The position numbers and the translations under genes are program-made. Below are positions 42,369 to 60,403 of a DNA stretch of 64,000 nt, one piece after another (within the stretch, counting starts at the first letter, position 1; each line of letters starts with the position of its first letter). Under the pieces are notes generated by a model. The model was not told where the DNA came from, did no database searches, and worked only from the letters and a program-made list of their open reading frames with translations. Source of the stretch: Escherichia coli (lineage in GTDB: Bacteria; Pseudomonadota; Gammaproteobacteria; Enterobacterales; Enterobacteriaceae); the NCBI RefSeq assembly GCF_044324785.1, contig NZ_CP172127.1; one strand, 5' to 3'.

Positions 42369-43781
42369 TTACCAACCGGAGGATGAGGGAACGTATATTT
42401 CTGTTTCTTCGCGGACCAATGCCGGGCAATGCATACACATCATCAGCGCATCAGCCAGGTTAGGAGATGGAATACCGAGCTTCTGCTTCATTTCGACCTT
42501 AGTCATTAGCTCCAGCTTCCCGTTGTTATTGAATTTGCGCTGAATCTGCGTCAGTTCTGCAAACAGCTTCTCCAGCATCTTCTCGCCTATCGCTTCTTTG
42601 TCGAAACTCAGCATGTCGTCTGGGTCTGCATACTCACCGTGAACAACCGCCCGATATGTCAGATACAGCCTGTCAGCCAGCACGTAATAGAATTGCGCTC
42701 GCTTATTGCGGAATACATCGCCAATAGTGCGAACGTTGTCGCCCTGTACGACTTCATCAGCCCAAGCTCCGGACTGATACGGCGCATCTTCATCGAATGG
42801 CGATTCGCTACCCTTGAACATTGTGGCGGTGATTTTCTTGCCGGAGAACGCTTCCGTTGTCTGTCTGCGCAGCCCGGCACCAACACCATCACCATCCCAC
42901 AGGTAATGGTCAGCGCCGTCTTCAATCGCCAGCGAAGTAGCCCAGTCAGCACCCTCGTTGATGTCCATCAGCAGACCTTCGGCAATGCGCTTAACTACCG
43001 AACCGTGACGCGATGCATAACCTTTAGCATCTGGCCCTGTATCTGATGGGTCATGCGCAGAGACAACCGCGCCCTTCGCTTTCCATCCGAGTTTCTTGTG
43101 CGCATCGGTTGCAGCTTCAAGCCATTCACGTTTGATGATTGCCATATCACTTGCGCTTACCGGCTCACCCAGCCAGATGTGACGATACAGTGTCGGATTT
43201 CTGCGTTTGCACTCTTCCATCTCCAGACGGAGAACTTCAGGAAAGTGCGGGTTGTCGGTGTAGTTCACCGTCAGCAGACAAATATCATCAGGAGGATTTA
43301 CGACGAATCGCTGATAGGTATCGTCGAGGATGTTCTTCGGGTTAAAGCTCACCCATATTTCAGAGAACGGCTTACGGATGGTTGGAATCAGGATATCCCA
43401 TGATTCCTTCGTTACCGCTTCCGCTTCTTCCACCCAGCAGATATCAATGCCTTCGAGCGATTTAATCTTCGTCGGGTTGTTTTTGATGCCGTAGAACATG
43501 AATTCAGCATTCGTTCCGAGATGACGAATCATTGAACGCTGAATTTCAAACTCAGCCGAATACCCTTCACGCTCGATGGTATCTTCAAGCAACCGGATTA
43601 CCGAATCGCTGATACTGTTTTGCAGTTCACGAGCGCAGAGAATACGCACAGGCTGCCGACGCGCCGCTTCAACAAGCAGCCTCGCAATTGCCCATGACTT
43701 ACCGCTACCTCGACCGCCTTTGGCAACTTTGTAGCGATGCGCCTCAATGAACGGTTCAAAGATAGGATTAATCGAGGTCAT
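42369..43781 (-). CDS. Terminase large subunit, 470 aa
   Basis: Walker A motif KGGRGSGKS near the N-terminus; 4-bp overlap with the terminase small-subunit gene. Confidence 0.9.
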   Translation of the reverse strand: MTSINPIFEPFIEAHRYKVAKGGRGSGKSWAIARLLVEAARRQPVRILCARELQNSISDSVIRLLEDTIEREGYSAEFEIQRSMIRHLGTNAEFMFYGIKNNPTKIKSLEGIDICWVEEAEAVTKESWDILIPTIRKPFSEIWVSFNPKNILDDTYQRFVVNPPDDICLLTVNYTDNPHFPEVLRLEMEECKRRNPTLYRHIWLGEPVSASDMAIIKREWLEAATDAHKKLGWKAKGAVVSAHDPSDTGPDAKGYASRHGSVVKRIAEGLLMDINEGADWATSLAIEDGADHYLWDGDGVGAGLRRQTTEAFSGKKITATMFKGSESPFDEDAPYQSGAWADEVVQGDNVRTIGDVFRNKRAQFYYVLADRLYLTYRAVVHGEYADPDDMLSFDKEAIGEKMLEKLFAELTQIQRKFNNNGKLELMTKVEMKQKLGIPSPNLADALMMCMHCPALVREETEIYVPSSSGW

Positions 43782-44218
43782 TTTCCGAATAGAGTGCTCA
43801 TCGGTGATGTTTCAATCTGAATTGCGCCGCCGTCTTTGCCTGTTAGCTCGTGATCAACCTTGTCGCGCCATTTATCCTTCTGTCGGTTCTTAAGCCAGAA
43901 GATGGCGGCGGTTGTATCAGGCGGGTAATACTTCTCAAGCGGAGTTTCGACAATTCTGTTTTCAATAACACGAATATCGATGTCTGGAGCCACAAACCCC
44001 ATAGCGCGTTGATAAAGACGGTCACTAACTTCTGCATCAGCGACGGCCTTACCCTTTTTTATGGACTCCGAAAACTTAGGATAATCAAGCTTCCACTTGT
44101 TAATAGTTGACTCACTGACTTCAAAGAAATCAGCAAGTTCTGCATCGGTGTAGCCCAGCAAGCACAGTTTGCGTGCCTGTTCGGCATACGCCTCTTGATA
44201 CTTTGTTGGGCGCGCCAT
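43778..44218 (-). CDS. Terminase small subunit (Sf6-type), 146 aa
   Basis: N-terminal HTH and the C-terminal tail ELTGKDGGAIQIETSPMSTLFGK, as in the Sf6 small terminase as I recall it. Confidence 0.8.
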   Translation of the reverse strand: MARPTKYQEAYAEQARKLCLLGYTDAELADFFEVSESTINKWKLDYPKFSESIKKGKAVADAEVSDRLYQRAMGFVAPDIDIRVIENRIVETPLEKYYPPDTTAAIFWLKNRQKDKWRDKVDHELTGKDGGAIQIETSPMSTLFGK

Positions 44219-44220
44219 GT

Positions 44221-44463
44221 TTATGCTCCGGTAGTGAACAGGTCTAACGCTTCCTTCGATTTACGCACCGCTTCGATTGTGCGGGTCGTGATATCTGAAT
44301 TAGCGCCGCCTGACTGGAAGTGAATTTTGAATAGCTCAAGCTTCAGCTCGTCAGTGCCGATGAACTGAAATGCTTCCTCTGCGGCTGCGTTCTGGTTCAT
44401 TACCAGTTTGTAAATCTCTAACTGGAATTTCTGTTCTTCAGTCATGGGAATAATCTCTGCCAT
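44221..44463 (-). CDS. Hypothetical phage protein, 80 aa
   Basis: ORF directly upstream of the terminase small-subunit gene. Confidence 0.45.
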   Translation of the reverse strand: MAEIIPMTEEQKFQLEIYKLVMNQNAAAEEAFQFIGTDELKLELFKIHFQSGGANSDITTRTIEAVRKSKEALDLFTTGA

Positions 44464-44566
44464 TGTTGGCTCCGTTTATCCGTTAAAAGGGATATCAGTT
44501 AAGTTATCCCGTGTAGGGTATAAGCCATTATCAAAGCCACTCAGTAAGGAATGGCTTTTGTAATAA

Positions 44567-44938
44567 CTACTGTTCGCTTAGCTTCTGCTTCAGCAAGTAA
44601 CCTTCAAGCATCCAGATTTTGTTTACAGCATTCTGCCGGGCAATCTTCCGACCAATTTCTGCATCAAAATTTTCCGGACTTGCACAGGCACTCTCTCCGG
44701 TGACGGTGAAGCCGTTGCGCAGCACCAGGACGCAGAACGTCAGCAGAGAAAGTGATTCGTGCGGCTGGTAGTTTACCTCTCCGCCAGTATGTTTCGCTTT
44801 TATGGCTTTGCCAAAGGCACCATCCTCTGCTGTGAAATATGCCTCCTGAGCAATAATTCCTTCGATATGGTCTGGCGTAACGCGCGGTGCCGTTTTGCCT
44901 TTCTCAACGATTTCTTTTTCGATTTGCTGGTCGTTCAT
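44567..44938 (-). CDS. Hypothetical phage protein, 123 aa
   Basis: ORF with a plausible start; unknown function. Confidence 0.45.
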   Translation of the reverse strand: MNDQQIEKEIVEKGKTAPRVTPDHIEGIIAQEAYFTAEDGAFGKAIKAKHTGGEVNYQPHESLSLLTFCVLVLRNGFTVTGESACASPENFDAEIGRKIARQNAVNKIWMLEGYLLKQKLSEQ

Positions 44939-45117
44939 AATTATGACCCTGTAGAGTGGTTGCTTGATTAGGATGTATTTCCATCAGTCCGCCACCACAA
45001 AGAATCTTTTTTGCCATAAGGCAGGAGGTTCATCTTTCAGTGGCTGCCAGTGTTATTTTTCCCACTTACTGGCTTGGGTTGTTTCGCTGTACTGCCGTTA
45101 ATTGGTGAGTCCGGGGA

Positions 45118-45603
45118 TTATTTCAGTTCGTTACCAGGCATTTCTTTTAGCTCTTTCAAATGACAACGATTGAGACTAAACCACTCCCCGTGCGACCTAT
45201 AGTTGTAATATTTTTGGTGCAATTTGGTTTCAAGCTCTCTATCGGCCGGAATCTTTGCAATTAGACTTAGCTTCCCACCACTCATGCGAGATATCTCTGA
45301 AATTCGTTTATTAACCCTGCGACTAAACCCTATTTTTGTTAGCCCACTATCTTCAGCATGCAGAACGTACACATATGATTTTTGCGAAGCACTGGGTGCG
45401 ACTTTGTTGTAATTAATCATGTCAAACATGAAGCCTTGCTTTAGCAAAGTTTCAAAAAAGATAGAATTAACACACCCATTCCTTCTCAGCTCTGAACTTA
45501 GCTTGTCAATTTCCTCTATGATGTCGCCAGACCCCTTTCCACTTATAAGAAAATCTTGGTACATGCGACCAATTCTTGAGGTAATTTCAACAAAGTTATT
45601 CAT
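45118..45603 (-). CDS. T5orf172 (GIY-YIG-like) domain protein, 161 aa
   Basis: C-terminal half YVYVLHAEDSGLTKIGFS...RISEISRMSGGKLSLIAKIP...ELETKLHQKYYNYRSHGEWFSL fits the T5orf172 pattern; strongly AT-rich relative to its neighbours. Confidence 0.6.
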   Translation of the reverse strand: MNNFVEITSRIGRMYQDFLISGKGSGDIIEEIDKLSSELRRNGCVNSIFFETLLKQGFMFDMINYNKVAPSASQKSYVYVLHAEDSGLTKIGFSRRVNKRISEISRMSGGKLSLIAKIPADRELETKLHQKYYNYRSHGEWFSLNRCHLKELKEMPGNELK

Positions 45604-45943
45604 AGCGTTTACCTTTTAGAAAGTGAGCCTGTCTCACAGAAAAGCCGCCCGAGAGAGGTCGCCACCTATAACGGCATTTCTCAGGCTCGCTTACTGAAAG
45701 GCTCTCGTTAATATGCGCGTGAGATGCGCTGTGAGATTCAGATATAAAAAAGCCCCGCGAATGCGAGGCTAAATCCTGGTGTTTGTGATGACTGGCTCTT
45801 ATCTCAACGCAGCCCCTTACCGCGCGCCAGATGCTCAATATCAAGCATCAGCAATGAGATGTTTAATCTGGATTCACTCCAGAAGTGATCACCACCCTGT
45901 CTACAGAGCCAGATGTGAAGGATGATGAGTAAAATTATCGCTA

Positions 45944-46381
45944 TCATCGAAGGCATTGCATCCTGATGTACTCCTGCAGGTAGTTAACCTGCGCGGTTAT
46001 CTTGTCGATTCCACTTCGGAGACGGTAATAATTGAGTTCAGCATCTGCTGTAAGTCCTGGGCTTTCTCCATCGCCCATGCCGCCGGCTCCGGTCGTTGAC
46101 TTTGCACAGGTGGCGGCGACTTGCAGGCGCTTACGCCCAGCAGAAACATCAGCACGGAGACTTTCGATAGTCGCGTTAGCATCAGCAAGCTCCTTTGTGT
46201 ATCTGGCGTCAAGTTCTGCTACATCACGTTGACGCTTCTGCATGTCAGCGATGATGGATGCGGCCTTATCGCGCTGCTCTTTGTAGGCGATGGCGTTATC
46301 ACGGTAATGATTAACAGCCCATGACAGGCAGACGATGATGCAGATAACCAGAGCGGAGATAATCGCGGTTAACCGACTCAT
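45944..46381 (-). CDS. i-spanin Rz (from ATG 46381)
   Basis: [39 protein letters not shown]... is near-identical to the lambda Rz N-terminus as I recall it. Confidence 0.85.
45997..46212 (-). CDS. o-spanin Rz1 (lipoprotein embedded in the +1 frame of Rz)
   Basis: Lipobox LLGVSAC followed by a Pro-rich region; lies entirely within Rz in another frame; the true start is probably an internal Met. Confidence 0.7.
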
Positions 46382-46469
46382 GACATCAACACCCCAACGG
46401 CCAGAAACCACGGCCACGCATCGTTGCCATTAAATGCGAGCAACGCTGCCATGAAAAAGCAAATCATGC

Positions 46470-46973
46470 TCATTGCTGCCCCCACAAACAGACTTCACGC
46501 TCAATCTCACGACGAGTCATCAGCCCTTTCCATTGCTTACCTCCAGCGTATGTCCAGCGACGTAGCTGGTCACATGCACCTTTGATATCGCCCTGGTTTA
46601 TTTTGCGAAGAAGCGTCGATGTTCTGAAATTGCCTGCACCCACGTTGTAGACGAACGAGTAAAGAGCGCCGCGCGTTGTTTCCGGTATATCGACTTTGAT
46701 GTACGGGTTAATTTGTCTGGCGACAGTGGCAAGGTCTTTATTCAGGAGGGCTTTGCACTCTGCTTCGGTATACGCTTTACCGAGCATGATGTCTTTTCCG
46801 GTGTGTCCGTGACATACAGTCCATACACCAACAATATCTTTGTATGGTATGTAGCTGACACCTTCCAGGCCATCGTTACCACTTGGTCCAGTGATTAACA
46901 CAGATGCTATAGCAATAGCCCCGCCACTTATCGCCGCTATTACGCTATTTCGTAGTGCCGGTGACATTGCCAT
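46470..46973 (-). CDS. SAR endolysin (phage 21 R-type lysozyme)
   Basis: N-terminal Gly/Ala-rich signal-anchor-release domain ([19 protein letters not shown]) followed by a T4-lysozyme-like catalytic triad region ([23 protein letters not shown]). Confidence 0.85.
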
Positions 46974-47148
46974 TCAATCTGTCCTCGCGCTCTTTGCGCT
47001 TGTAGTACCAGTTGATGCCAAATGTGCCGACAGTACAAAGAATACCAATGATGACAGCCCAGTCATTCAGGGAGAGAATGCCACCCATCGCAGTCAGTCC
47101 TCCGAAACTGTAACTGAACCATTCTCTGATTTTGTCCATACGGTACAT
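46945..47148 (-). CDS. Class II holin (pinholin-like) with dual-start motif
   Basis: 67 aa with two TM helices; N-terminus M-Y-R-M gives two in-frame starts separated by a basic residue; overlaps the endolysin start. Confidence 0.7.
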
Positions 47149-47392
47149 GCTCTACCCCTTCATTGAGGGGATTTGCTCTATTTAATTAGGAATAAGGTCG
47201 ATTACTGATAGAACAAATCCAGGCTACTGTGTTTAGTAATCAGATTTGTTCGTGACCGATATGCACGGGCAAAACGGCATGAGGTTGTTAGCGCAGCCTC
47301 TTGCCACCCGCTTTCACGAAGGTCATGTGTAGAAGGCCGCAGCATAACTATCACTGATGAATTCAGGATAGCCAGTGGCTACGGCTCAGTTA

Positions 47393-47468
47393 TGGTGCTG
47401 GTTAACGGACTTGAACCGCTAGCCATTCGCTTACAAGGCGACCGCTCTACCATTGGAGCTAAACCAGC
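47393..47468 (-). tRNA. Prophage-encoded tRNA (76 nt; anticodon read as UGU, Thr)
   Basis: Hand fold of GCTGGTT...AACCAGCACCA: 7-bp acceptor stem, D-arm GCTC/GAGC, T-arm AGCGG-TTCAAGT-CCGTT, CCA encoded; the anticodon stem has one mismatch. Confidence 0.55.
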
Positions 47469-47473
47469 ATGTT

Positions 47474-47548
47474 TGGCGGGACAGCGTGGACTCGAACCAC
47501 GATAAGAAGGTTAACAGCCTTCCGTAATGACCTTTATACGACTGACCC
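47474..47548 (-). tRNA. Prophage-encoded tRNA-like gene (75 nt; anticodon read as GUU, Asn), possibly degenerate
   Basis: T-arm CGTGG-TTCGAGT-CCACG and anticodon arm GAAGG-CTGTTAA-CCTTC are clean; the acceptor and D stems each have one mismatch; CCA encoded. Confidence 0.45.
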
Positions 47549-47611
47549 GAATAAAAAAAGCCACCGTTGCAACTTAAGAGTCACTAACGGCAGCTTACCT
47601 TCTAATTATTG

Positions 47612-48130
47612 CTAAATGGATAATTGCATGTCAAGGCTTTTAACAGCAACATGCTTAACTTTCTCAACACGTTTACGCATTTTGAAAGCATTTTGCATTG
47701 GCTGGTACAAAACAAATAACGATGCTTTCAGGATGTCGTCAATTTCGTTTCTACAGGTTGCCAGTGAAGGTTTTCTCCATCCCTCGCCACCACGTCCACA
47801 CATCTTGCGTGGCTTTGCAGTCGCGTGATAGTAGGATGCAATTGCTCGCTTAGATGAACCATGAGCGTAGTAGCTGAGGAGGATGCCAAAGGCTTTCTTG
47901 TCAATGCACATGACGGAATCGACGACCTGAGAAATCAACATTCCATCATCATCATTGCACATTGGCCTTGTCATAACTCTTCCCGGCTCTACGCTCTCCA
48001 TGAACTTCGCTATTACGCTGCTCATGCGCTTTTCCAGACGACCTGAATAAACCCATGCGCCCCACAGTTCAAGCCAGCCATTCAGCCACTCATGCTGTTC
48101 TTTGGTGAGGTTTAGTTCTCTTATGCCCAC
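47612..48130 (-). CDS. Late-gene antiterminator Q (933W/phage-21 type)
   Basis: Shares the WGAW...RP-C-DDD...LL-YY pattern with 933W Q as I recall it; positioned between the nin region and the tRNA/lysis genes. Confidence 0.7.
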
Positions 48131-48792
48131 TCGCCTTCTCCCTGTACCTGAATCAATGTGAGGTTTCCGCAGAACACTGAGCCGGTATCGATATACATTT
48201 GGTTGGCAAATTTAAGTGGTTTCACTGCTGGCGTATGACCAAAGATAAACGTGTCCGCGCCTTTAATTTCTTTCACGATCCCGTCTTGTGAGTTGCTGAT
48301 TCGTTCGCGGTTCCAGATTACCTGCTGATGATCAACTGGCTTTCCAAATTCGTATTCGTCACAAGGATAATCGGCGTGGCAGATGACATATTTTTTACCT
48401 TTGCTCACCAGTTCGATGATTAACGGAAGTTCTTCTGCTTTATGGGCAAGAGCTTTAGCCAGAATTTCTTTGTCGTAATCGAGATTAAAGAACCAACTAC
48501 CGCCATTAAGCAGCCAGTGATTGACGTTTCCACGCTCTGATAAGCCATCAATCATCATTTGCTCATGGTTTCCACGTACAGCTCGGAACCAGGGGAATGT
48601 GATTAATTCCAGACATTCGACGTTCTCTGTACCGCGATCGACCAAATCGCCAACCGAGATAAGCAGGTCTTTTTTGGTGTCGAATCCTATCGTCTCCAGT
48701 TTTTTCATCAGGTTCGTGTAGCATCCGTGCAGATCGCCAACTACCCAAATATTTCGGTATTTGCTGCCATCAATTCTTTCGTAATAGCGCAT
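48121..48792 (-). CDS. Ser/Thr protein phosphatase NinI (lambda PPase-like), from ATG 48792
   Basis: [29 protein letters not shown]...GDLVDRG...GNHE metallophosphatase motifs; near-identical to lambda NinI as I recall it. Confidence 0.85.
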
Positions 48793-48976
48793 CTCTTTCA
48801 CTCCATCCGCGATGAACCATGAGAACGTCGTTGACGATGGCGTGCATTTTCCCGTCTTTATCATCAACGTATTTTCTGACCGTACCGCGACTACATTTCA
48901 GTCTGCGTGCTACTTCTGTCTGGTTTCCGTATGCTTCAACGAGCATGTCTGGAATGGTTTTTACTGAGAACGTCAT
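48770..48976 (-). CDS. NinH (68 aa)
   Basis: [37 protein letters not shown] matches lambda NinH. Confidence 0.8.
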
Positions 48977-49584
48977 GCGGCCTCACTTCTGCTATTTCGC
49001 AGGTCTTTGAGTTTCTGTTGGTACTCTGCCTTGATCGCCTTGCACTCTTCGACAGTCCAGCGATGGCGGTTATGGTTTGATTCGATTTCGTCTACTGCTT
49101 CCTGCCCGATCCGGTTAATCAGTTCGACGCGATACGGAACGAGATTTCCGCTTTTATGCTGGTTGCACACCACGCATTGCTTGTGAATATTGCGTTCATC
49201 AAATCGGAGTTGAGGTGCCGCAGCAGTTGTCCGGTAATGCCCGGCATCCCACTGAGCAGACGTGAGCGTTCCGCATGAGATACATGGTAAGTCGCGGTCT
49301 CTTTCTCTGATGAAGGCGTTTACGGCTTGTTGGGCTTGTTTAATCCAGTAACTGCGGGGCTTTAAGGCGAGTTTTCGAATCTTAAGTTTATCTTTCTGTT
49401 TCTGCTCCTCTCGTCGTCGTTTCTTCTCTGCTGCTTTTTCCGCTTTTTCGCGTTCTTTGCTTCGTCATTCGAGTGCTATCTTGGTTCCACACTCTGGAGA
49501 GCACCACCACTGATTAGCGAATGCAGGGTGAAACCATTCCCGGCATTCATCGTTTTTACATCGTCTTCGCGCTGGTTTAGCCAT
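48973..49584 (-). pseudogene. ninG (rap) with an in-frame TGA at codon 40
   Basis: [39 protein letters not shown]-[TGA][21 protein letters not shown]... continues in the same frame to 48973 (203 codons in total); the stop is at 49465-49467 on the minus strand. Confidence 0.75.
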
Positions 49585-49853
49585 TATGGTTCGCTCCAGT
49601 AATTCTCAATTGCAGCAGCCATTCTCTGCATCCACTCTGCCAGCTTTAACGCGGCTTCTCTTTCAGAACCACATTTAGGGAAATCCTTCATTTCCATGCT
49701 GGCCTTATATGTTCTGAATGCCAGGTCTCCGGTAATAACCAGCTCCTGATCAAGCACAGAGCGTTTATTCCGGTGTTGAACGTAATAGACAGATTCAGTC
49801 CGCATTTCTTCTCTGTCTTTTTTGAAGGAAATAAGCTCAGAGAAATCACTCAT
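49584..49853 (-). CDS. Hypothetical nin-region protein, 89 aa
   Basis: ORF whose ATG overlaps the stop of the upstream NinF-like gene. Confidence 0.45.
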
Positions 49854-50022
49854 CGTCTTCTTCCTCGTACATTGAGCTATTCGGATCGCTCATCAGTTCT
49901 GCGCAGCAATCGGCGCACACGTGAACTTCCAGCACATGCAGCTTCTGACCGCAGTTAGCGCACGTTAAAGCCCGCTCGACGCTTTCTTTCTGGTATTGAA
50001 GGGATTGGGATGGGCTAAGCAT
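49846..50022 (-). CDS. NinF-like small zinc-ribbon protein (58 aa)
   Basis: Hand translation [58 protein letters not shown]; below the 60-aa cutoff of the ORF track. Confidence 0.6.
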   Translation of the reverse strand: MLSPSQSLQYQKESVERALTCANCGQKLHVLEVHVCADCCAELMSDPNSSMYEEEDDE

Positions 50023-50438
50023 TATTGGATTCTCTGCATCCTGAGAAAGACAATCATGGCTGCGCGGAGAGGGTTGTCATCAAGAGTAATATGCTCACCA
50101 AAGCTATCAGCCTCCCACCATGACACTGCTTTCATGCCAGGGTTTGCTCGCTTGTATGCACATACGCTGATCATGTTTTCCATGATAATCGGCCATGCGT
50201 CTGCTGGGTTTGCGCATGGGTTAAAGGAACCGCGCTCAACTTCTACTTCAACTGCGTCTCCGTTTACAATGTCTCCCTCAAATGAGACAAACACCATATC
50301 GCCATTCTCACCTTCTTTGTAATCCGGTGATCCGTTATGAATGGCTTCGAATACCTCCACGTTAATTTCAAAATCACTTAACTGTGAATAATCCATTGTC
50401 ATTTCCTCGCACGATGTCTTAGCCACCGGATATCCCAC
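50022..50438 (-). CDS. Hypothetical nin-region protein, 138 aa
   Basis: ORF only; acidic. Confidence 0.45.
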
Positions 50439-50541
50439 AGGTGAGCCGTGTAGTTGAAGGTTTTTACGTCAGATTCTTTTGGGATTGGCTTGCGTTTATT
50501 TCTGGAGCGTTTCGTTGGAAGGTATTTGCAGTTTTCGCAGA

Positions 50542-50733
50542 TTATGTCGGTGATACTTCGTCGCTGTCTCGCCATACGTCCTCCTTTTCCTGCGGTAGTG
50601 GTAAAACTCCTGTTGGTGTTCTTTCACACCGGAGACACCATCGATTCCAGTAAGGTTGCCCGGGTCGAAAGCGATCGCCTTCCTTTCGCTCTCCACATCG
50701 ATAACAGTGCTTCATGCGATCACCATTTTGCAT
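50542..50733 (-). CDS. Small zinc-ribbon protein (about 57-63 aa)
   Basis: [32 protein letters not shown]; frame choice between two overlapping ORFs is uncertain. Confidence 0.35.
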
Positions 50734-51302
50734 GGTTTAATCGCCATGCCGGTAGCCAGTTCAAAATCGGAGTCGCACTGATTGCCCCACATATCCCACC
50801 CGGTCACTTTGTCGCGGCTAAATAACTCACAGCGCGGCACGTCGCCAAGCAACTTAGCTAACATGTCTCTTACGATCGGTGGTTTTGCACTGTGCTCCAT
50901 TCTCGGTGCGGTAAAGTGCTGGCATATGGAAGCGTCCATTCTCTCAGGCAACCGCCCTCGAACAGCAAACAAGCAATCCTCGCTATTTGCCCTGGTCATA
51001 TGCCCCATTCCGATCGCACTGTTGCCTTTGTGCTTATTGGTTTTGTGCCAGGTAAAGCCTTTCATAGTCATCAACCTGAATCCCCACGCCTCAACTACCT
51101 TTAGCGCTTCGGCTGGCTGTGTCGGCACCCACCACATCGCTAACAAGCAAGATTCTGGATCCGCTAAATCCCATACTGGCAGTCGGCAAATGTCCTGAAC
51201 ATTCATAACATCGTATTTATGTCCAGCACCGCGATTGCCATCGTTGGCTTTGTCGCGATATTGCCAAGGCGGATCTGCGTAAATAAGTCGGTATTTGTTC
51301 AT
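50712..51302 (-). CDS. Phage DNA N6-adenine methyltransferase (MT-A70-like, DPPW motif)
   Basis: [15 protein letters not shown]... catalytic DPPW near the N-terminus; 196 aa. Confidence 0.8.
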
Positions 51303-51739
51303 GCAGCTTTATCTCCCCATCTCGCTTTCCACTCCAGAGCCAGTCGCGCTTCGTCTGACCACTTAACGCCACGTTCTGTACCGAATGCCTGTATAAGCTC
51401 TAATAGCTCCGCAAATTCGCCTACACGCATCCTGCTGGTTGACTGGCCTATTACCACAAAGCCATTCCCGGCAAGGTTAGGAACAACATCCTGCTGCTTT
51501 AATGCTGCGGTAAACACACACTTCCAGCTTTCTGCATCCAGCCAGCGACCATGCCATTCAACCTGACGAGAGACGTCACCAAGGCAAGCCCAAAGCTTTC
51601 GATTCTGGTCTAAGCTGCGGTTGCGTTCCTGGATGGTCACTACGATTGGTTTGGTTGGGTCTGGAAGAATTTGCTGTATCGCGTGAATAGCGTTTTGCTG
51701 ATGAATGGGGCTTCTTAGTTCAAACGTTAGTTTCCTCAT
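51299..51739 (-). CDS. NinB recombination protein
   Basis: 146 aa matching lambda NinB as I recall it (IVVTIQERNRSLDQNRKLWACLGDVS...). Confidence 0.8.
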   Translation of the reverse strand: MRKLTFELRSPIHQQNAIHAIQQILPDPTKPIVVTIQERNRSLDQNRKLWACLGDVSRQVEWHGRWLDAESWKCVFTAALKQQDVVPNLAGNGFVVIGQSTSRMRVGEFAELLELIQAFGTERGVKWSDEARLALEWKARWGDKAA

Positions 51740-51974
51740 TGCTCACCTTCTGCACGCATGGATTAATTAACGCCAAAATAGCTTCTGGTTTCTCAATAAC
51801 ATCGAACCGCTCACCACTTGCCATTCTTACAATCGTAATCCCGGCCTCAAATATGGTTTCGATGTTGTCAGAGTTAACGTACAAGGGCTCATATGCACTT
51901 CTGGTGCTTTCTATCACGCCTGTGCTTGGTGGCTGATAGATGCTGCATTGCATGGTTAATTTTATAAATGGCAT
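51720..51974 (-). CDS. Hypothetical phage protein, 84 aa
   Basis: ORF only. Confidence 0.4.
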   Translation of the reverse strand: MPFIKLTMQCSIYQPPSTGVIESTRSAYEPLYVNSDNIETIFEAGITIVRMASGERFDVIEKPEAILALINPCVQKVSNEETNV

Positions 51975-51978
51975 ATAC

Positions 51979-52218
51979 TCACTCCTTCACTTTGACTCCA
52001 GCAGCGCGGATGGCGCTCTGCACCTCGCTTACATACAGATATGGGGTTCGCCCACTATGCATGGTAAAGCTTTCAGGAAGCTCAATCTCGATAGCTGCTC
52101 GCGATGCCTGCCATAAAGCCCACCACTCATTTAAGGAGTGACGAATATCCATGCTTGAAAATGCGAAGTACCTATCACCATTTCTTGCCTCGGTTATCAT
52201 CTCGAATGGTAATCTCAA
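51979..52218 (-). CDS. Hypothetical phage protein, 79 aa
   Basis: ORF only. Confidence 0.4.
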   Translation of the reverse strand: MRLPFEMITEARNGDRYFAFSSMDIRHSLNEWWALWQASRAAIEIELPESFTMHSGRTPYLYVSEVQSAIRAAGVKVKE

Positions 52219-52274
52219 TTTTTTGGCAACGTATTCCTAAAACTGCTTTCTTGATTCGCCCATATCAATCCCCG

Positions 52275-52475
52275 TTATGACAGGTTAATTTTCACCCAAC
52301 CCTTCCCACGCACATTTGCAACAAGCCCTTTCTTTCTCAGGTATTGCATACGGCGATCGATGGTTTCGATATACATTCCATTGCTCCGCCATTTAAGCCA
52401 GATATCAAAAACAGGTGTTGGTCTTTCACTCAGCATTGAAAGAATGTTTTGATCTAATTTTTCGTACTTGCTCAC
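52275..52475 (-). CDS. Hypothetical small DNA-binding-like protein, 66 aa
   Basis: Basic C-terminus (RRMQYLRKKGLVANVRGKGW) suggests a winged helix. Confidence 0.4.
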   Translation of the reverse strand: MSKYEKLDQNILSMLSERPTPVFDIWLKWRSNGMYIETIDRRMQYLRKKGLVANVRGKGWVKINLS

Positions 52476-52798
52476 AAATACCCTCTCTCACTTAATCGCG
52501 CCCACGCTTCGTTAAACTCTTCTCGAGTTGCGCCGGATTTTCTTTCTTCGAACATCATGCATTCGCTGATGTCTCCCCATGACTTTGGTCGCTTTTCAGC
52601 GAACAGATCATCCCATTCGAATACCCAGCGGCCTGATTTTCGGTAGTGGTAAATGGTCAGCCATGTTGTGCTGTTCGCTGGATACCCATAGAGAACTTCG
52701 ACTTTTTGATCACGGTCTTTATGCTTTTTCAGCAGGATAAAGCCAGCAACTAGCGAAGCTCCGGCAAGAATGATGATTGGAATTTGCCAGTCAGCCAC
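52472..52798 (-). CDS. Hypothetical membrane-anchored protein, 108 aa
   Basis: N-terminal TM helix IPIIILAGASLVAGFILL. Confidence 0.4.
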   Translation of the reverse strand: MADWQIPIIILAGASLVAGFILLKKHKDRDQKVEVLYGYPANSTTWLTIYHYRKSGRWVFEWDDLFAEKRPKSWGDISECMMFEERKSGATREEFNEAWARLSERGYL

Positions 52799-52870
52799 AC
52801 TTCCCTCTCCCCCAAATAAAAAGGCCTGCGATTACCAGCAGGCCTGTTATTAGGTCAGTTATGTAGATGG

Positions 52871-54247
52871 TCATACGTCAGCCCCTTGTGCATATCGTCT
52901 GCCACGCGCAGCAGGTGCATTTGATGCTGTGCAAATCTGTCTGGCTTCATCCTGGTCACATGCAACAAAGTGTCCGTTACAGAACCGCTGGTAAACCGTA
53001 CCAAGCGAGCCAAAACGGTTTTTCGTCACAATGATTTCAGCAAATGGCGCGGCGCTACTGTTCTCGTCATATACCGCTTCCCGATAGAGCATGATGATTG
53101 AGTCTGCGTCCTGCTCAATGCTTCCTGAATCACGCAAATCTGCGTTTGTCGGGCGTTTGTTTGGTCGCTTCTCAACATCGCGCGAAAGCTGACTCAGGGA
53201 GATAACAGGCGTTTTCAGGTCTTTCGCCATCGCCTTCAGGCTTCCGGAGATGTGAGCAATTGCGAGGTCGTTGCGGTCTGCTTTCGGCTTCTCAATCAGG
53301 CCAAGATAATCCGCCATGATGAGTGACAGGTTTGGATTTTCCTGTTTGTGCCGCTCTGCGATTGAGCGAATTTCTTCTACCGATAACCGCGAGGCATCGA
53401 CTACCCATACATCCAAATCTGCAAGCTGACTCATGCCGTTAGCAACACGTGCCCAGCCTTCGTCATCCATCGATGCAGGATTTCGTAGCACGCTAACCGA
53501 CATCCTCCCGGCGTTGGCAATGCTTCGCTCTGCAATCTGCAATGCGCTCATTTCCATCGAGAAAATCAACACTCCGCGCCGGACGTCAGAACCAGGAATA
53601 ACACGACTTGCAACGCCTTCGGCAATCTTCAGCGCCAGTTCGGTTTTCCCCATACCAGGACGAGCAGCGATTATCACCAGGTCTTCCGCGTTCATCCCTC
53701 CGGTGATGGCATCAAGTTCTTCGATTCCGGTCTTCAGGGTATCTGACTCTTCTCCGTTCCTCAGACGCCTGTCAAGCGTGTCAGTGTAGTCAGTGATGAT
53801 TTCACCTAACCGTACAGGTTTAACCTCGTCACGGGGCTTTCTGATGGCTGAGAGACGCTTTACAAGCTCATCCATCGCTTGACTCGATGCGTCGATGGTT
53901 CCGCTCTGAATTGGTTCACGCATTTCATCCATGATTTCCAGCACCAGACGGCGGTGATAGTTATCCGCGACCATTCCGGCATATCCCTTCAGGTTTGCGG
54001 CACTCGGGCAGTTTTTGCTGGTCATCAGGATTGACGTGAAATGCTCCTCTCCGCACGCCTCGGCAACCATCAGCGCATCGATTAGGTTTCTGTTTCTCGC
54101 CTGCTTGCGGATAACCTCGAAGGCTTTCCGGTAGAGCGGAATTGAAAACGCTTCCGGCTCCAGCGTTGCCAGAACGTCGCTGGCGGTTGGTGTTAATCCA
54201 CCAATCAGCAGGCCACCGATAACGCTCGCTTCGATATCCTGTCTCAT
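52871..54247 (-). CDS. Replicative DNA helicase (DnaB-like; P22 gene 12 analogue)
   Basis: Walker A ARPGMGKT plus DnaB-type N- and C-terminal domains; 458 aa. Confidence 0.9.
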
Positions 54248-55065
54248 GCAATCCCCCTGTCTGCAAACTTCCCTTCCCGTACTCCAGTTAACGAATCTTC
54301 CCTCAGCAGGTAATCAAAATCAGCTGTCCAGCCCGTGTCGTTGTCTCCGAAGTAAAACGGCTTGGCCTGATGCACAAACGCCCTGACATACGCTCTGAAA
54401 CCGTCCACGTTTGGCGTTTTCAGTTGCGGGATGATTTTCTTCAGGCGGCGTTTGCGTTTCTCGTTGACCGCAACAGCGTGTGGCAGTCTGTCACCGACTT
54501 CGGTGTTGTAGGCGTTCAGGAAGGATTCGTAGTCGATTCGTTCTGCCTTGCGACGTTCAGGTTTAACCTGCCCATCGCCACCCCCGTTAGGGGGTAAGGG
54601 GGTATTTGTATTTATTGTCTTTTGTATATTGTCTTTTGTGTTTAGCTGACTTGGCTTATACCCATTAGCCGACTTGGCTAATGTTTTATTAGCTGTTTTA
54701 GCTAATGTTAAGCTGTCCTGGCTAATCCACTGAGAAACAACCTTGTTCACTCCGATTTTCACGCCATCAGCAATGAGGAATTTACGCTCGATAAGCTGGC
54801 GCTTGGCAGCGCAAACATGAGTGTGATGAATACCTGTCATGGCTGCTATCTGCGTGTTTGTGAGTCGATCCATCGGCTTATTGAATCCGTATGTCTTGCG
54901 CATGATAGCGAGCATCACCTTCAACTGCCGGACGGTTAAATCAGCCATCAGCAGACTGTCGGTAATCTCGTTAGCAACGCGCATGAAACCATCTTCGGTA
55001 TCTGCCACGCGATGCTCCACGACCTCAAGTTGAGGCCTGTAATCAGCTAACTTAACGACGCCCAT
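54244..55065 (-). CDS. Replication initiation protein (lambda O / P22 gp18-like)
   Basis: 273 aa; N-terminal HTH; the gene contains an iteron-rich AT segment (see repeat feature). Confidence 0.75.
54580..54730. repeat. Putative phage origin of replication (iterons inside the O-like gene)
   Basis: CCCCCGTTAGGGGG palindrome followed by direct repeats TTGTCTTTTGT (x2), GACTTGGCT (x2) and TAGCTAATGTT (x2) in an AT-rich stretch. Confidence 0.5.
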
Positions 55066-55247
55066 GTTTCACTCCTGCTTTGGCTAGTCTGTAAACACCA
55101 ACAAGGCGCTCTGCGAACGCCCTGTTATTTGCTGCGGCTACCACTAATCCCTCAGGTGAATCAGGGTGTCGAATCTCTTCTTTTTCCTGGTATTTCTTAC
55201 GACGTTTTGTCATAATGACTCCTGTGGATTGATCCAGTCTTTCTACA

Positions 55248-55529
55248 TCAGGCCTCGAAGAATTCGCCGTTCTTCGGGGCTTTTTCTTTTGTCAGGTAAT
55301 TGGCAAGCCGCTTAGTCAGCTCAGCCATTTCATCGTCTTCGATTCCGTATTCCAGAACAGCCAGCATCATGCTTACCTGCGAGAAGAAACCATTCTTCCA
55401 TCGGCTTACCTGATATTCAGGAACCCCCATTGCTCGAGCGAATGTCTTCTGCCCCATCAGTGCCAGTTTGTTCAGCAAGGCTGACTCGATGCGAGCCGCT
55501 TTCTTGCTTTTAGTTGCAATAGTACCCAT
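55248..55529 (-). CDS. CII-like transcriptional activator
   Basis: ARIESALLNKLALMGQKTFARAMGVPEYQVSRWK...MLAVLEYGIEDDEMAEL parallels lambda CII. Confidence 0.8.
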   Translation of the reverse strand: MGTIATKSKKAARIESALLNKLALMGQKTFARAMGVPEYQVSRWKNGFFSQVSMMLAVLEYGIEDDEMAELTKRLANYLTKEKAPKNGEFFEA

Positions 55530-55605
55530 AGATAATTTCCTTAATGATTAGATAGAGTTGGCTTCGCAAAGAAACGCAAAACCATAGAGATTTGTTTCTG
55601 GTAAT

Positions 55606-55637
55606 GCCCTTTTTCAGGGCGGGGATGTGTAAGAGCG
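55606..55637 (-). promoter_or_regulatory. nutR (boxA + boxB)
   Basis: Minus-strand boxA CGCTCTTAC and boxB GCCCTGAAAAAGGGC, between cro and cII. Confidence 0.8.
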
Positions 55638-55645
55638 TTAATAAC

Positions 55646-55876
55646 TTAAGCGGCCATTAATTCAGGCCAGATGCTTTCCCAATCAACCGGATGAAGGTCT
55701 TTGCGAGTCACTTCACCATTGCTGAACTTCTCAATCAGAACACAAAGTGCTGCGCCCAATTCATGATTACGGCTAAGTGCTTTCCTCAAATAGCCGATAG
55801 AAGTTCCGCACTTGGTGGCAAATTCTCTCTGCTCTTCCAGTGAAAGGGAGTTCAGATACAAGCGGAGTTCTTCCAT
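55646..55876 (-). CDS. Cro-like repressor (HTH)
   Basis: 76 aa, divergent from cI across the operator region; HTH segment REFATKCGTSIGYLRKALS. Confidence 0.7.
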   Translation of the reverse strand: MEELRLYLNSLSLEEQREFATKCGTSIGYLRKALSRNHELGAALCVLIEKFSNGEVTRKDLHPVDWESIWPELMAA

Positions 55877-55910
55877 TTGCTATCTCCTTCCCGTTGTTGA
55901 ATAAGATGAG

Positions 55911-55965
55911 TTTACCTGTAGGTAAAAAGCAAATCAATACCCATAGGTTATTTACCGGCAGGTAA
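55911..55965. promoter_or_regulatory. Right operator region (OR) with PR/PRM
   Basis: Palindromic sites TTTACCTGTAGGTAAA (55911-55926) and TTTACCGGCAGGTAA (55951-55965), consensus TTACC-N4-GGTAA. Confidence 0.7.
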
Positions 55966-55984
55966 TCAAAGATAGAATTAAATC

Positions 55985-56671
55985 ATGGATAAATACGAAC
56001 AAAGACGACTAAGGCTGATAGAGATAAGAGACCGATTCTGTAATGGAAAGGCCTCAGAGTTGGCTCGTCGAATAGAAAGGGAACCATCATACGTTTCCAG
56101 AATGCTGTATCCGGAAGGAAAAAGCGGAAAAAAACGCATTGCTGACGATATGATGGAACTAATTGAAAAATCTTTTAATCTCCCACGCGGATGGATGGAC
56201 ATGCTTGCAGATGGTAAAGCTGGAGCTACAGACCATCTTGAGTTTGCGGGTAACGTTCGTGCGGGTTTTGTTCCGGTAATTGGTGAAGCCGTTTTGGGAG
56301 TTGATGGCTCAGTGGATATGATTGAATTCAGATCCGGTTGGTTAAGCATCTACAGCGGCGATAAAGATGCTTACGGTCTGAAGGTTAAGGGTGACAGCAT
56401 GTGGCCAAGGATTCAGTCAGGAGAATATGTTGTTATTGAACCAAATACGCCAGTACATCCAGGTGATGAAGTCTTTGTAAGGACCAAAGACGGTCACAAC
56501 ATGATAAAGATCATGAACAAAACAAGAGACGGTGATTATCAGTTTAGTAGCATAAACAGTGATCACCGCCCAATCACTCTTCCTGTTGAAGAAGTTGATA
56601 AAATGCATTTTGTTTCAGCTATTGTGAAACACACCAGGTACGTAGACCAGGACGATCTGCCAAAAGTTTGA
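55985..56671 (+). CDS. CI-type prophage repressor (HTH + LexA-like S24 peptidase domain)
   Basis: N-terminal HTH and C-terminal autocleavage domain with GDSMWP (Ser nucleophile); 228 aa. Confidence 0.85.
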   Translation: MDKYEQRRLRLIEIRDRFCNGKASELARRIEREPSYVSRMLYPEGKSGKKRIADDMMELIEKSFNLPRGWMDMLADGKAGATDHLEFAGNVRAGFVPVIGEAVLGVDGSVDMIEFRSGWLSIYSGDKDAYGLKVKGDSMWPRIQSGEYVVIEPNTPVHPGDEVFVRTKDGHNMIKIMNKTRDGDYQFSSINSDHRPITLPVEEVDKMHFVSAIVKHTRYVDQDDLPKV

Positions 56672-56685
56672 GGATAAAGCAGCAA

Positions 56686-56982
56686 GTGTTTATACCCGGC
56701 ATAGTAGTCGCTGTTGTAATCATCTGCTTCATATGGGCAAAGTTATCTCCTGTAAGCTCTAAGCATACAGCTGAACTCATGAAGAAGAAGCATCTTATAC
56801 ATGAGGCAGAATCGATAATTAAAAAGTTCAAAGGCATGTCATACGACGACATGTCATCAGAGCAGATTGCTATGTATAAATGCGCCATTGAGCGTCTTGA
56901 CTACTTAAACGGACTCAAACCCAAACACACCCCAGTAGAATCAAAATTGCCGCAATGGCCAAGCAATCCAAATAGCTTCTGA
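56686..56982 (+). CDS. Small single-pass membrane protein downstream of cI (rex-locus position), about 98 aa
   Basis: GTG at 56686 with GAGG upstream (or TTG 56668); TM helix VFIPGIVVAVVIICFIWA then a soluble domain; followed by an intrinsic terminator. Confidence 0.5.
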   Translation: MFIPGIVVAVVIICFIWAKLSPVSSKHTAELMKKKHLIHEAESIIKKFKGMSYDDMSSEQIAMYKCAIERLDYLNGLKPKHTPVESKLPQWPSNPNSF

Positions 56983-56993
56983 CATCTCCTTTC

Positions 56994-57016
56994 AGCCCGC
57001 AAAGCGGGCTTTTTTA
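56994..57016 (+). terminator. Intrinsic terminator ending the cI operon
   Basis: AGCCCGC-AAA-GCGGGCT hairpin followed by TTTTTT. Confidence 0.8.
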
Positions 57017-57035
57017 TATCAATCCAAAAAATTAA

Positions 57036-57116
57036 TTACCTGAAAATTCAAGCAGGTAAACTCTTACATCAATTTTATTTACCTGCAGGTATAGACAACT
57101 GTTTTACCTGTAGGTA
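57036..57116. promoter_or_regulatory. Left operator region (OL) with PL
   Basis: Sites TTACCTG-N10-CAGGTAA (57036-57059), TTACCTGCAGGTA (57079-57091) and TTACCTGTAGGTA (57104-57116), the same consensus as OR. Confidence 0.7.
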
Positions 57117-57160
57117 TATTTTAGGCCATCAGCAGGACGCACTGACCACCATGAAGGTGA

Positions 57161-57191
57161 TGCTCTTAAAAATTAAGCCCTGAAGAAGGGC
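57161..57191 (+). promoter_or_regulatory. nutL (boxA + boxB)
   Basis: TGCTCTTAAAAATTAAGCCCTGAAGAAGGGC; boxB hairpin GCCCTGAAGAAGGGC as in lambda nutL. Confidence 0.85.
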
Positions 57192-57348
57192 AGCATTCAA
57201 AGCAGAAGGCTTTGGTGTGTGTGATACGAAACGAAGCATTGGCCGGAAGTGCGAATCCGGATTAGCTGCCAATGTGCCATTGCGTGGTGTTTTCGTTCAG
57301 GACTACGACTCCCACACACAACCAAAGCTAACTGACAGGAGAATCCAG

Positions 57349-58246
<898 letters not shown>

Positions 58247-58369
58247 TTAAAAGACAGGCATACTAATAAACACTGCACTGTGTATTCATTCCAACGAGTG
58301 AATACACGGAGCAATGTCGCTCGTAACTAAACAGGAGCCGACTTGTTCTGATTATTGGAAATCTTCTTT

Positions 58370-58396
58370 GCCCTCCAATGTGAGGGCAGTTTTTTT
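58370..58396 (+). terminator. Intrinsic terminator (tL-like) within the early-left operon
   Basis: GCCCTC-CAATGT-GAGGGC hairpin followed by AGTTTTTTT. Confidence 0.7.
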
Positions 58397-58409
58397 GACG
58401 GAGTAAACG

Positions 58410-58658
58410 ATGATAAAAACTGATTACCCTGCAGAGCTTAAACAAAAAGTAATAACAGCAATTAAATGCTCTTTTATCTCATGTCGTACAGATGAAGAAC
58501 GATATGTCGTTGAGTGTACAATTGTCGAGTTTCTCACAGCGATGGAATTTACCGCTGCAGAATCAATAGATGTATTAAAGCAATCAGACGGAAATGATAT
58601 TGAAACGGATGATGTTATTGACCGACTAATAAAATCATTCGAAGAAGAAATAGAGTAG
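58410..58658 (+). CDS. Hypothetical acidic early protein, 82 aa
   Basis: RBS GGAG upstream of ATG; unknown function. Confidence 0.45.
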   Translation: MIKTDYPAELKQKVITAIKCSFISCRTDEERYVVECTIVEFLTAMEFTAAESIDVLKQSDGNDIETDDVIDRLIKSFEEEIE

Positions 58659-58741
58659 CCGCCTGAGCGCGGCTTTACCGCATACCAATAACGCTTCACT
58701 TGAGGCGTTTTCGTTATGCAATCAAACAGAAGGAGCATCCT

Positions 58742-58912
58742 ATGCAACAGTTCGCTATTGCAGGGGCGGCATCGGTTCGCCCTTTCAACCCGATTTTATC
58801 GGTGCAGCATTCACGAAAAAATATTTTAACCGGAGCAGACTTTAAACAACCAAGAATGAAAAGTTTGCTCGAAAAGCTTTGGGATATTTTGAAACAACAA
58901 GGCCGTCCATGA
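58742..58912 (+). CDS. CIII-like protein (56 aa from ATG 58742)
   Basis: RBS AGGAG; MQQFAIAGA... resembles the lambda CIII N-terminus (MQYAIAGW...). Confidence 0.55.
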   Translation: MQQFAIAGAASVRPFNPILSVQHSRKNILTGADFKQPRMKSLLEKLWDILKQQGRP

Positions 58913-59166
58913 GTTTTACAGATAACTGGTCAGACGAAGAATTCATTCGTCAGATGAAAGAATTAATCGGTAACGAAGGAGATATTCATGTCACTTGCAA
59001 CCACAGTGAAGGAGAGCAAGTTACAGAGACGCATGCACACGCAGAAAGCTCTCTGGTATCGCCATAATGGCGACCGCGAAGGAATGCGGGTATGCCTTAA
59101 TTTGTCCCGAGTCGAAGTATTAAATCAGCGTTATTTCCTTGGGCCTTGTCCATTCTGAGGTGAATT

Positions 59167-59874
59167 ATGGATTTGAACAAATTCGATGAGCCATTCAGCC
59201 CTGAAGATATCGAATGGCGAATACAGCAAAGCGGTAAAACACGCGATGGCAAGGTGTGGGCTATGGTGCTGGCTTATGTCACGAACCGGGCAATCATGAA
59301 ACGCCTGGACGATGTTTGCGGCAAAGCAGGATGGCGCAATGAATACCGCGATATTCCCAACAACGGCGGCGTTGAATGCGGCATATCAATAAAGATTGAT
59401 TCCGAATGGGTAACCAAATGGGATGCTGCTGAAAACACGCAGGTAGAAGCCGTCAAAGGTGGTCGTTCCGGTGCAATGAAGCGCGCTGCCGTTCAGTGGG
59501 GAATCGGTCGGTATCTGTATAACCTTGAGGAAGGTTTCGCACAAACATCTCTCGATAAAAAGCAGGGGTGGCACAGGGCAAAACTGAAGGATGGAACAGG
59601 ATTTTACTGGATCCCTCCATCGCTTCCGGGATGGGCAATCCCAGCATCAGATAACAAACCATCACCAGAAAATACCAACCAGAAATCTCCATCGGTTGAC
59701 TGCGAACAAATCCTGAAAGACTTCAGCGATTATGCATCGAAAGAAACTGATAAGAAAAAACTCATCGAGCGTTATCAGCGTGACTGGCAATTAATGGCTG
59801 GAAACGAGGAGGCGCAGGCTAAATGCGTTCAGGTAATGAACATCAGAGTTAACGAGCTAAAACAGGCGGCATAA
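59167..59874 (+). CDS. ssDNA-annealing recombinase with Erf-type C-terminal domain
   Basis: C-terminal ...DYASKETDKKKLIERYQRDWQLMAGNEEAQAKCVQVMNIRVNELKQAA parallels the P22 Erf C-terminus; the N-terminal domain differs. Confidence 0.7.
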   Translation: MDLNKFDEPFSPEDIEWRIQQSGKTRDGKVWAMVLAYVTNRAIMKRLDDVCGKAGWRNEYRDIPNNGGVECGISIKIDSEWVTKWDAAENTQVEAVKGGRSGAMKRAAVQWGIGRYLYNLEEGFAQTSLDKKQGWHRAKLKDGTGFYWIPPSLPGWAIPASDNKPSPENTNQKSPSVDCEQILKDFSDYASKETDKKKLIERYQRDWQLMAGNEEAQAKCVQVMNIRVNELKQAA

Positions 59875-60390
59875 ATGGCAAGCAGAGGCGTAAATAAGGT
59901 GATCATTATTGGTCGCCTTGGGCATGATCCAGAAATCAGATATTCACCATCAGGAACGGCATTTGCAAACCTTACAGTTGCTACGTCAGAACAATGGCGT
60001 GATAAGCAAACTGGAGAGCAAAAGGAGCAGACGGAGTGGCACCGCGTGGTAATGAGCGGAAAACTGGCAGAAATTGCCAGCGAATATCTGCGAAAAGGCT
60101 CTGAGGTTTATCTTGAAGGAAAATTGCGGACAAGAAAATGGCAGGATCAAAGCGGACAGGATCGGTTCACTACCGAAGTCATCGTGGGCGTTGGTGGAAC
60201 CATGCAAATGCTTGGTGGCAAGCAAGGAGGCAATGAACAGTCTTCACCTCAGCGAAATGACGGTCAGCAACAAAGACAGCAACCTCAGCAGCAAGGGAAT
60301 CACAGCGAACCACCTATGGATTTTGACGACGATATACCCTTTGCACCAGTAACTCTCCCCTTCCCTCGTCACGCTATTCACGCAATTTAA
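59875..60390 (+). CDS. ssb: Single-stranded DNA-binding protein (SSB)
   Basis: OB-fold N-terminus ([34 protein letters not shown]...), Gly/Gln-rich linker and acidic tail DFDDDIPF. Confidence 0.9.
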
Positions 60391-60403
60391 TCAGGAGAAA
60401 ATC

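Follow-up and report, generated by a model that had tools for sequence, protein, structure and literature searches.

An MT-A70 family methyltransferase gene is a mosaic cassette in the nin region of a P22-like Escherichia coli prophage and probably encodes a lytic-phase, Dam-like DNA enzyme

Among the nin genes of a P22-like prophage in Escherichia coli (contig NZ_CP172127.1 of assembly GCF_044324785.1) lies an open reading frame for a predicted adenine methyltransferase, and we asked which nucleic acid such an enzyme would modify, and whether it would act on the phage or on the chromosome of the lysogen. In the window that we analyzed (the whole stretch of 64,000 nucleotides), the gene occupies positions 50712..51302 on the minus strand and encodes 196 amino acids plus a stop codon. 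The Pfam family MT-A70 (PF05063) matches the protein over its full profile (positions 1-172 of 172, E = 6.7e-25, 88.4 bits against a cutoff of 23.9), and the protein matches PHROG 359, “DNA methyltransferase”, at 2e-106; judged by these scores, both matches are far beyond chance level. The catalytic motif IV, D10-P11-P12-W13, is read directly from the codons GAT CCG CCT TGG at 51264..51275 on the same strand. These observations bear out the preliminary description of the locus, which had placed an MT-A70-type DPPW adenine methyltransferase on exactly this reading frame. The DPPW sits near the N-terminus of the domain and corresponds to the (D/N)PP(W/Y) motif IV of a circularly permuted beta order, and the predicted activity of the product is SAM-dependent methyl transfer to the N6 of adenine.

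MT-A70 is the sole Pfam family matched by this protein at E ≤ 0.01, and on that ground we rejected three other identities: the classical, alpha-class Dam (PF02086), the Dam of T1, HP1 and VT2 (PF05869), and the non-specific methyltransferases of the M.EcoGII/Hia5 type (N6_N4, PF01555). These enzymes are also orphan adenine methyltransferases of phages and hosts, some with a presumed GATC target, but they belong to sequence families other than MT-A70. A scan of NCBIfam with the methyltransferase, the Stx-phage homologue gp5, the phage protein PNB-2 and five small neighboring ORFs gave no family match. An identical protein is already present in NCBI (e.g., ARX27063.1), is found in 133 contigs and bears the name “MT-A70 family methyltransferase”; the gene itself is thus ordinary, already annotated and named.

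We aligned 56 homologues and examined conservation at the active site. Within motif IV, D10 is invariant and W13 is present in more than 90% of sequences; in a second motif, E136-H-S-A-K-P141 (codons at 50880..50897, minus strand; family consensus EHSxKP), K140 is invariant and H137, S138 and P141 are each conserved in at least 90%. All eight invariant residues of the family are kept in the prophage protein (D10, W57, W85, K87, G100, E108, K140 and E159), as are the near-invariant residues, including W13 and H137-S138-x-K140-P141. The dN/dS relative to a close E. coli allele is 0.05; in comparisons with distant homologues, synonymous sites are saturated and dN is 0.16-0.34. These sequence measures show an intact gene that is subject to purifying selection.

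An AlphaFold model built with 56 homologues has a mean pLDDT of 91.8 and a pTM of 0.88, with only the final ~16 residues poorly defined. The best Foldseek matches of this model are the catalytic subunits METTL3 and MTA1 (E ~1e-14, TM 0.70-0.74), and a sequence search against solved structures identified ciliate MTA1-type proteins (1e-10) and METTL3 (4e-6); among the PDB matches of both searches, none was a bacterial or phage MT-A70 protein. We are therefore confident in predicting, from the model, a Rossmann-like methyltransferase fold that can be superposed on METTL3 and MTA1, and this superposition would place the E136-P141 motif in a loop beside the SAM/adenine pocket. METTL3, which makes m6A in human mRNA, and MTA1, which makes 6mA in ciliate DNA, have the fold and the DPPW in common with the prophage protein at ~22% identity. 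However, both obligately form heterodimers, pairing with a degenerate paralogue (METTL14 and MTA9, respectively), and have accessory subunits, whereas the prophage enzyme is encoded without a paralogue and without a conserved neighbor as partner: in a comparison of eight homologous loci we found no conserved neighboring gene for a partner subunit, and the upstream genes vary. The protein is a minimal catalytic core of 196 amino acids, and neither Pfam nor the model revealed a recognizable, separate target-recognition domain.

The prophage is ~39.8 kb long, P22-like and integrated at thrW. It is bounded by an exact 64-bp att repeat, with attL (22652..22715) marking the left boundary and attR (62428..62491) overlapping the 3′ part of tRNA-Thr(CGT) (62446-62521) at the right end, where the tyrosine integrase gene (61271-62431) adjoins attR. 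Its products include a tailspike whose head-binding domain is that of P22, Ant and Abc2, an SSB and a Rad52-like protein, a CI-type S24 repressor, the O protein and a DnaB-like helicase, and the N and Q proteins. On the minus strand, the gene order is helicase, four small ORFs, NinB, the methyltransferase, NinD, NinE, NinX and NinF, followed by an 89-aa ORF, NinG, NinH, a Ser/Thr phosphatase and Q. Both the att repeats, integrase and tRNA at the right end, and the run of nin neighbors through to Q, all on the minus strand, agree with the earlier assignment of the gene to the nin region of a prophage.

Examination of the two gene junctions demonstrated that the methyltransferase gene overlaps both of its neighbors by four nucleotides. 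Directly upstream lies ninB, which encodes the orf recombination mediator (51299..51739, minus strand; Pfam NinB, 3.7e-54), and the TGA of ninB overlaps the ATG of the methyltransferase in the sequence ATGA at 51299-51302. Directly downstream lies ninD (50542..50715, minus strand), mapped from the PGAP annotation of a 98%-identical locus, and here the methyltransferase TGA and the ninD ATG overlap as ATGA at 50712-50715; the ORF listing also holds a longer alternative start for ninD at 50733. Translational coupling as tight as this is typical for nin regions (PMC8022706). Using blastn, we compared the region with a sister E. coli prophage that has ninC (PAPS-reductase family) in the slot between ninB and ninD. 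Homology extends over 50394-50717 and 51299-51739 and is interrupted exactly at the methyltransferase ORF, so that 50718..51298 is the sole non-homologous part between ninE/ninD and ninB. Because the homology breaks so precisely at the ORF, we class the methyltransferase gene as a clean mosaic cassette. The NinC of lambda, a PAPS-reductase-like protein, occupies the same ninB-X-ninD slot, bounded likewise by the stop codon of ninB and the start codon of ninD; it belongs to an unrelated protein family and is a positional analogue only.

Small genes elsewhere in the nin region also differ between related prophages. The 89-aa ORF between ninF and ninG (49584..49853, minus strand; PHROG 1258, E = 4.7e-38) contains a stretch, 49585-49850, that is missing from two prophages otherwise 95-98% identical, and is another small mosaic cassette. 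The four small ORFs at 51720..52798 (minus strand), between a tR2-like terminator and ninB, encode proteins of 108 aa (PHROG 5903), 66 aa (PHROG 7185), 79 aa (PHROG 343) and 84 aa (PHROG 8458), the last of which is called “flagellar FlbD family” in PGAP; none of the four matched a family in NCBIfam, and the whole block is missing from the NinC-carrying sister prophage.

The methyltransferase had been described as an orphan with no adjacent endonuclease, and a wider survey of the prophage upheld this. Pfam scans of 20 further prophage ORFs, together with the nin neighbors, detected no restriction endonuclease and no second methyltransferase, and the only other nuclease-like ORFs of the prophage are a ninG (junction-resolvase) pseudogene and a T5orf172/MUG113 protein, neither of which is a restriction partner. 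Among the ORFs scanned, the linked endonuclease gene of a type II restriction-modification system is therefore missing.

As an accessory cassette, the gene is common among lambdoid and P22-like prophages. Its cluster at 90% identity spans E. coli, Salmonella enterica, E. albertii, E. marmotae and Enterobacter, and 228 cluster members have the same length as the ORF studied here. Of 5,426 complete E. coli genomes, ~38 contain an allele at least 95% identical, and ~866 contain a homologue that is 70-75% identical. The segment from NinX to NinB is matched over most of its length in 37 records, and the allele occupies the NinB-X-NinD slot at every locus that we examined. The wider family is large, with 12,496 representatives of 50%-identity clusters at E ≤ 1e-3. 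In Erwinia phage 59, the orthologue likewise follows a NinB-like gene, and the same nin region encodes a cytosine DNA methyltransferase; in Klebsiella and Hafnia phages, HK639, BZS1 and Stx phages, the homologue lies in the leftward early operon, in the interval from the recombination genes to int. Relatives at 40-50% identity carry fused DNA-binding domains (ParB_N, HTH_32/28/29 or HTH_20), and these fusions point to DNA as the substrate, as does the cytosine DNA methyltransferase beside the orthologue of Erwinia phage 59.

Several of these relatives have been studied. The closest are M.EcoGV of E. coli O104:H4 and M.EcoPA8orf6770P (gp5) of Stx2 phages such as phiPA8 and ArgO145, which are 62-65% identical to the protein at 50712..51302. 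They too are orphan MT-A70 enzymes of ~200 aa with an N-terminal DPPW, encoded in an early operon of lambdoid prophages. However, in Stx phages the gene belongs to the leftward operon, close to int and outside the nin region, and has a partner gene, PNB-2, just upstream. Its product also has a C-terminal tail that is 12 aa longer and different (208 versus 196 aa), the two proteins being unrelated after approximately residue 180. The remaining differences between M.EcoGV or Stx gp5 and our protein concentrate in the loops 88-102 and 129-146; it is likely that these loops contact the substrate, and specificity could accordingly differ from that of M.EcoGV. More distant are p32 of Serratia phage vB_SspM_BZS1 (44% identity) and gp35 of Escherichia phage HK639, Dam-like MT-A70 enzymes that are also orphan early genes of temperate phages. 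These two (44-50% identity) have an insertion of ~24 aa after the W-x-K strand, and their genes adjoin int/xis, outside the nin region. The founding bacterial MT-A70 DNA m6A methyltransferase, M.EfaBMDam of Tn1549 in Enterococcus, is carried not by a phage but by a conjugative element, with type IV secretion genes around it, in a Gram-positive host; in our comparison it is represented by a Tn1549-like Enterococcus homologue, 39.5-41.6% identical, which stands in for M.EfaBMDam and need not be the same sequence.

In a neighbor-joining tree, which is crude and midpoint-rooted, the prophage protein groups with proteins of Erwinia, Hafnia and Klebsiella phages, the Stx-phage group is its sister, and the BZS1/HK639 and Enterococcus groups branch further out. 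By these rough positions of M.EcoGV, BZS1 p32 and the Enterococcus homologue, enzymes that methylate GATC bracket the prophage protein. DNA from a Dam-negative host carrying BZS1 p32 was resistant to MboI and sensitive to DpnI, i.e., p32 is GATC specific (PMC7556043), and M.EfaBMDam of Tn1549 is cited as GATC specific in the same paper. Overproduced M.EcoGV methylates GATC in vivo, according to work cited in PMC10810198 and PMC6602927. The bracketing by three GATC-methylating MT-A70 relatives is what leads us to a Dam-like DNA m6A reading, in which both the DNA substrate and the GATC specificity are predicted from these relatives. Overall, we think it rather probable that the gene encodes a stand-alone, Dam-like GATC DNA m6A enzyme, carried as a swappable ninB-[X]-ninD cassette and expressed from its operon in the lytic phase. 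In the literature, our search for methylome data that bear on MT-A70 enzymes of phages returned nothing beyond PMC10810198, PMC7556043, PMC6602927 and PMC8022706.

The substrate of M.EcoGV and Stx gp5 is itself disputed, being either GATC DNA or 16S rRNA, so that for this clade the very class of substrate is contested. The purified Stx-phage homologue was nearly inactive on DNA, unmethylated GATC DNA included; changing its DPPW to APPA abolished its function, and Gong et al. blame overexpression for the M.EcoGV result on GATC (PMC10810198). By analogy with M.EcoPA8orf6770P-PNB-2, the prophage protein would be an RNA methyltransferase for 16S rRNA that modulates translation and prophage induction and does not mark DNA. 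In support of this, the closest functionally studied homologue (62-65% identity), together with PNB-2, is reported to prefer 16S rRNA and 30S subunits and to raise spontaneous induction (PMC10810198), and METTL3, an mRNA methyltransferase, is among the nearest solved structures. However, the rRNA preference needed PNB-2, which Stx phages encode just upstream. A tblastn search of the whole 64-kb window detected no homologue of PNB-2 or PNB-1 (best E = 4.4 and 0.68, respectively), the upstream gene here is ninB, and the STEC-type C-terminal extension proposed for PNB-2 binding is missing. Gong et al. themselves note that shorter, PNB-2-less variants occur outside STEC, and their assays followed SAM consumption, with no modified base mapped (PMC10810198). 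Moreover, the other assayed family members are DNA GATC enzymes, relatives carry the DNA-binding fusions described above, and MTA1, an equally close structural match, is a DNA enzyme. We consider an rRNA-methylating enzyme of the Stx-phage kind improbable here. Somewhat less probable still is that nin-region MT-A70 enzymes are more than simple Dam mimics, methylating rRNA without PNB-2, or acting with NinB on single-stranded or recombining phage DNA; the NinB-partnered version, if true, would be a phage precedent for partner-directed targeting as in METTL3-METTL14 and MTA1-MTA9. A DNA adenine methyltransferase with a non-GATC or relaxed specificity, giving broader anti-restriction protection, is unlikely but deserves serious consideration, since specificity often shifts near 60% identity, the probable substrate-contact loops are where the protein diverges from M.EcoGV, the 196-aa core has no recognizable target-recognition domain and non-specific phage adenine methyltransferases exist (M.EcoGII and p25 of phage OS31). 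Nevertheless, the known non-specific enzymes belong to a family other than MT-A70, and all three bacterial or phage MT-A70 members with a reported DNA specificity, at 40-65% identity, recognize GATC.

The position of the gene in its operon bears on when it is expressed, and with it on two further readings. A strong intrinsic terminator on the minus strand (52845..52822) directly follows the DnaB-like helicase gene and precedes the nin block; it has an 8-bp stem containing 6 GC pairs followed by a T-run, and by its position we equate it with the tR2 of lambda. A scan based on consensus matching, which for terminators covered intrinsic ones, gave no convincing match to a strong minus-strand promoter between this terminator and the methyltransferase gene. 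The ATGA overlaps on both sides, the tR2-like terminator, the promoter scan and the presence of N and Q together argue for lytic-only expression, in which, by analogy with lambda and P22, CI repression should keep the gene off and induction with N antitermination should turn it on; established knowledge of the nin region and Cheng et al. (1995), as cited in PMC8022706, support this pattern. The preliminary description had suggested that such an enzyme can mark the chromosome of a lysogen with its own methylation pattern, and this part of it now appears unlikely, given a coupled nin operon behind a tR2-like terminator and no convincing promoter of its own. Expression in the lysogen as an epigenetic regulator of host genes does have precedents: a stationary-phase-induced promoter has been reported for the Stx-phage homologue in lysogens (a personal communication in PMC10810198), and some prophage methyltransferases, e.g., M.EcoGIII, change host expression. 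The Stx-phage locus differs, however, from this one, where no strong promoter match precedes the gene; methylome studies find most prophage orphan methyltransferases silent in lysogens; and host Dam would make any GATC mark superfluous. We give such a regulator little credence. Given the operon position, comparing the methylomes of lysogen and cured strains would probably reveal nothing, and GATC specificity, if real, would make the mark invisible in a dam+ host. Least credible of all is a non-functional remnant in a decaying prophage: the same prophage does contain a nonsense mutation in ninG and an inserted IS, but the methyltransferase ORF has the full length of its cluster members, keeps every invariant residue and shows a dN/dS of 0.05 or less against close alleles.

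We therefore return to the Dam-like reading, according to which the gene product is probably a lytic-phase, Dam-mimicking DNA methyltransferase and not an epigenetic imprinter of the lysogen. On this model, loss of CI repression together with N antitermination through the tR2-like terminator would allow transcription of the delayed-early rightward operon, the methyltransferase would be translated by coupling to ninB, and its DPPW active site would methylate the adenine of GATC, with S-adenosylmethionine as the methyl donor. The enzyme would act on phage DNA as it replicates in the lytic cycle, and the chromosome of a stably lysogenic host would be spared. The virion DNA of P22 and lambda is under-methylated by Dam (PMC8022706), and the probable benefit would be full GATC methylation of progeny genomes, beyond what host Dam can reach on fast-replicating phage DNA. 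Complete methylation would protect from m6A-sensitive GATC restriction, and under-methylated phage DNA would possibly also be shielded from attack by MutH. An anti-restriction role is thus plausible, either against GATC-cutting, m6A-sensitive enzymes or by simply completing Dam methylation; we infer both the lytic-phase timing and the benefit. The gene matters little beyond its correct annotation, save that its nearest studied homologue is central to the dispute over DNA versus rRNA as the substrate, for which a PNB-2-less, nin-region variant would be a clean test case.

GATC sites are under-represented in the prophage. Within 22652..62491, the observed/expected ratio is 0.46 (83 sites versus 181 by Markov expectation), making GATC the second most under-represented palindromic tetramer of the prophage, and in the flanking chromosome (1..22651) the ratio is 0.76. 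The 3-kb nin region holds a cluster of 16 of the 83 sites; the methyltransferase gene accounts for five, one of which lies in the DPPW codons. GATC depletion is a general property of enterobacterial phages, and we set it aside as evidence for methyltransferase function, since it cannot be attributed to this gene.

Our survey of the prophage identified a number of other features. The ninG gene (rap, Holliday-junction resolvase; 48973..49584, minus strand) is a nonsense pseudogene, which aligns over 200 of 203 aa to an intact E. coli NinG with an in-frame stop at codon 40 (~49465-49467), leaving only a 66-aa C-terminal ORF; this mutation is a sign of prophage decay. An insertion sequence of 1,059 bp (27709..28767) lies inside the prophage near ant. 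It encodes a DDE_Tnp_1 transposase of 322 aa (27742..28710) between terminal inverted repeats of 34 nt (GGCTTTGTTGAATAAATCG...), and by its terminal repeat it looks IS903-like (IS5 family). Genes for tRNA-Thr(TGT) and tRNA-Asn(GTT) (47393..47548, minus strand) are located directly downstream of the Q antiterminator gene, and between the lysis genes and terminase a 161-aa protein with T5orf172 and MUG113 (GIY-YIG-related) domains is encoded at 45118..45603 (minus strand), possibly as an accessory gene of a homing-endonuclease-like or DNA-binding kind. A 167-aa ORF (57665..58168, minus strand) that runs antisense to the leftward early operon, just past the N gene, gave no match in a Pfam scan; the corresponding position of a related prophage holds the hypothetical protein WP_001278766, and the ORF may be a moron or defence gene. 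Lastly, a hexapeptide-repeat acyltransferase gene (23045..23716, plus strand) adjoins attL and the tailspike gene, and is a candidate for O-antigen acetylation, i.e., lysogenic conversion.
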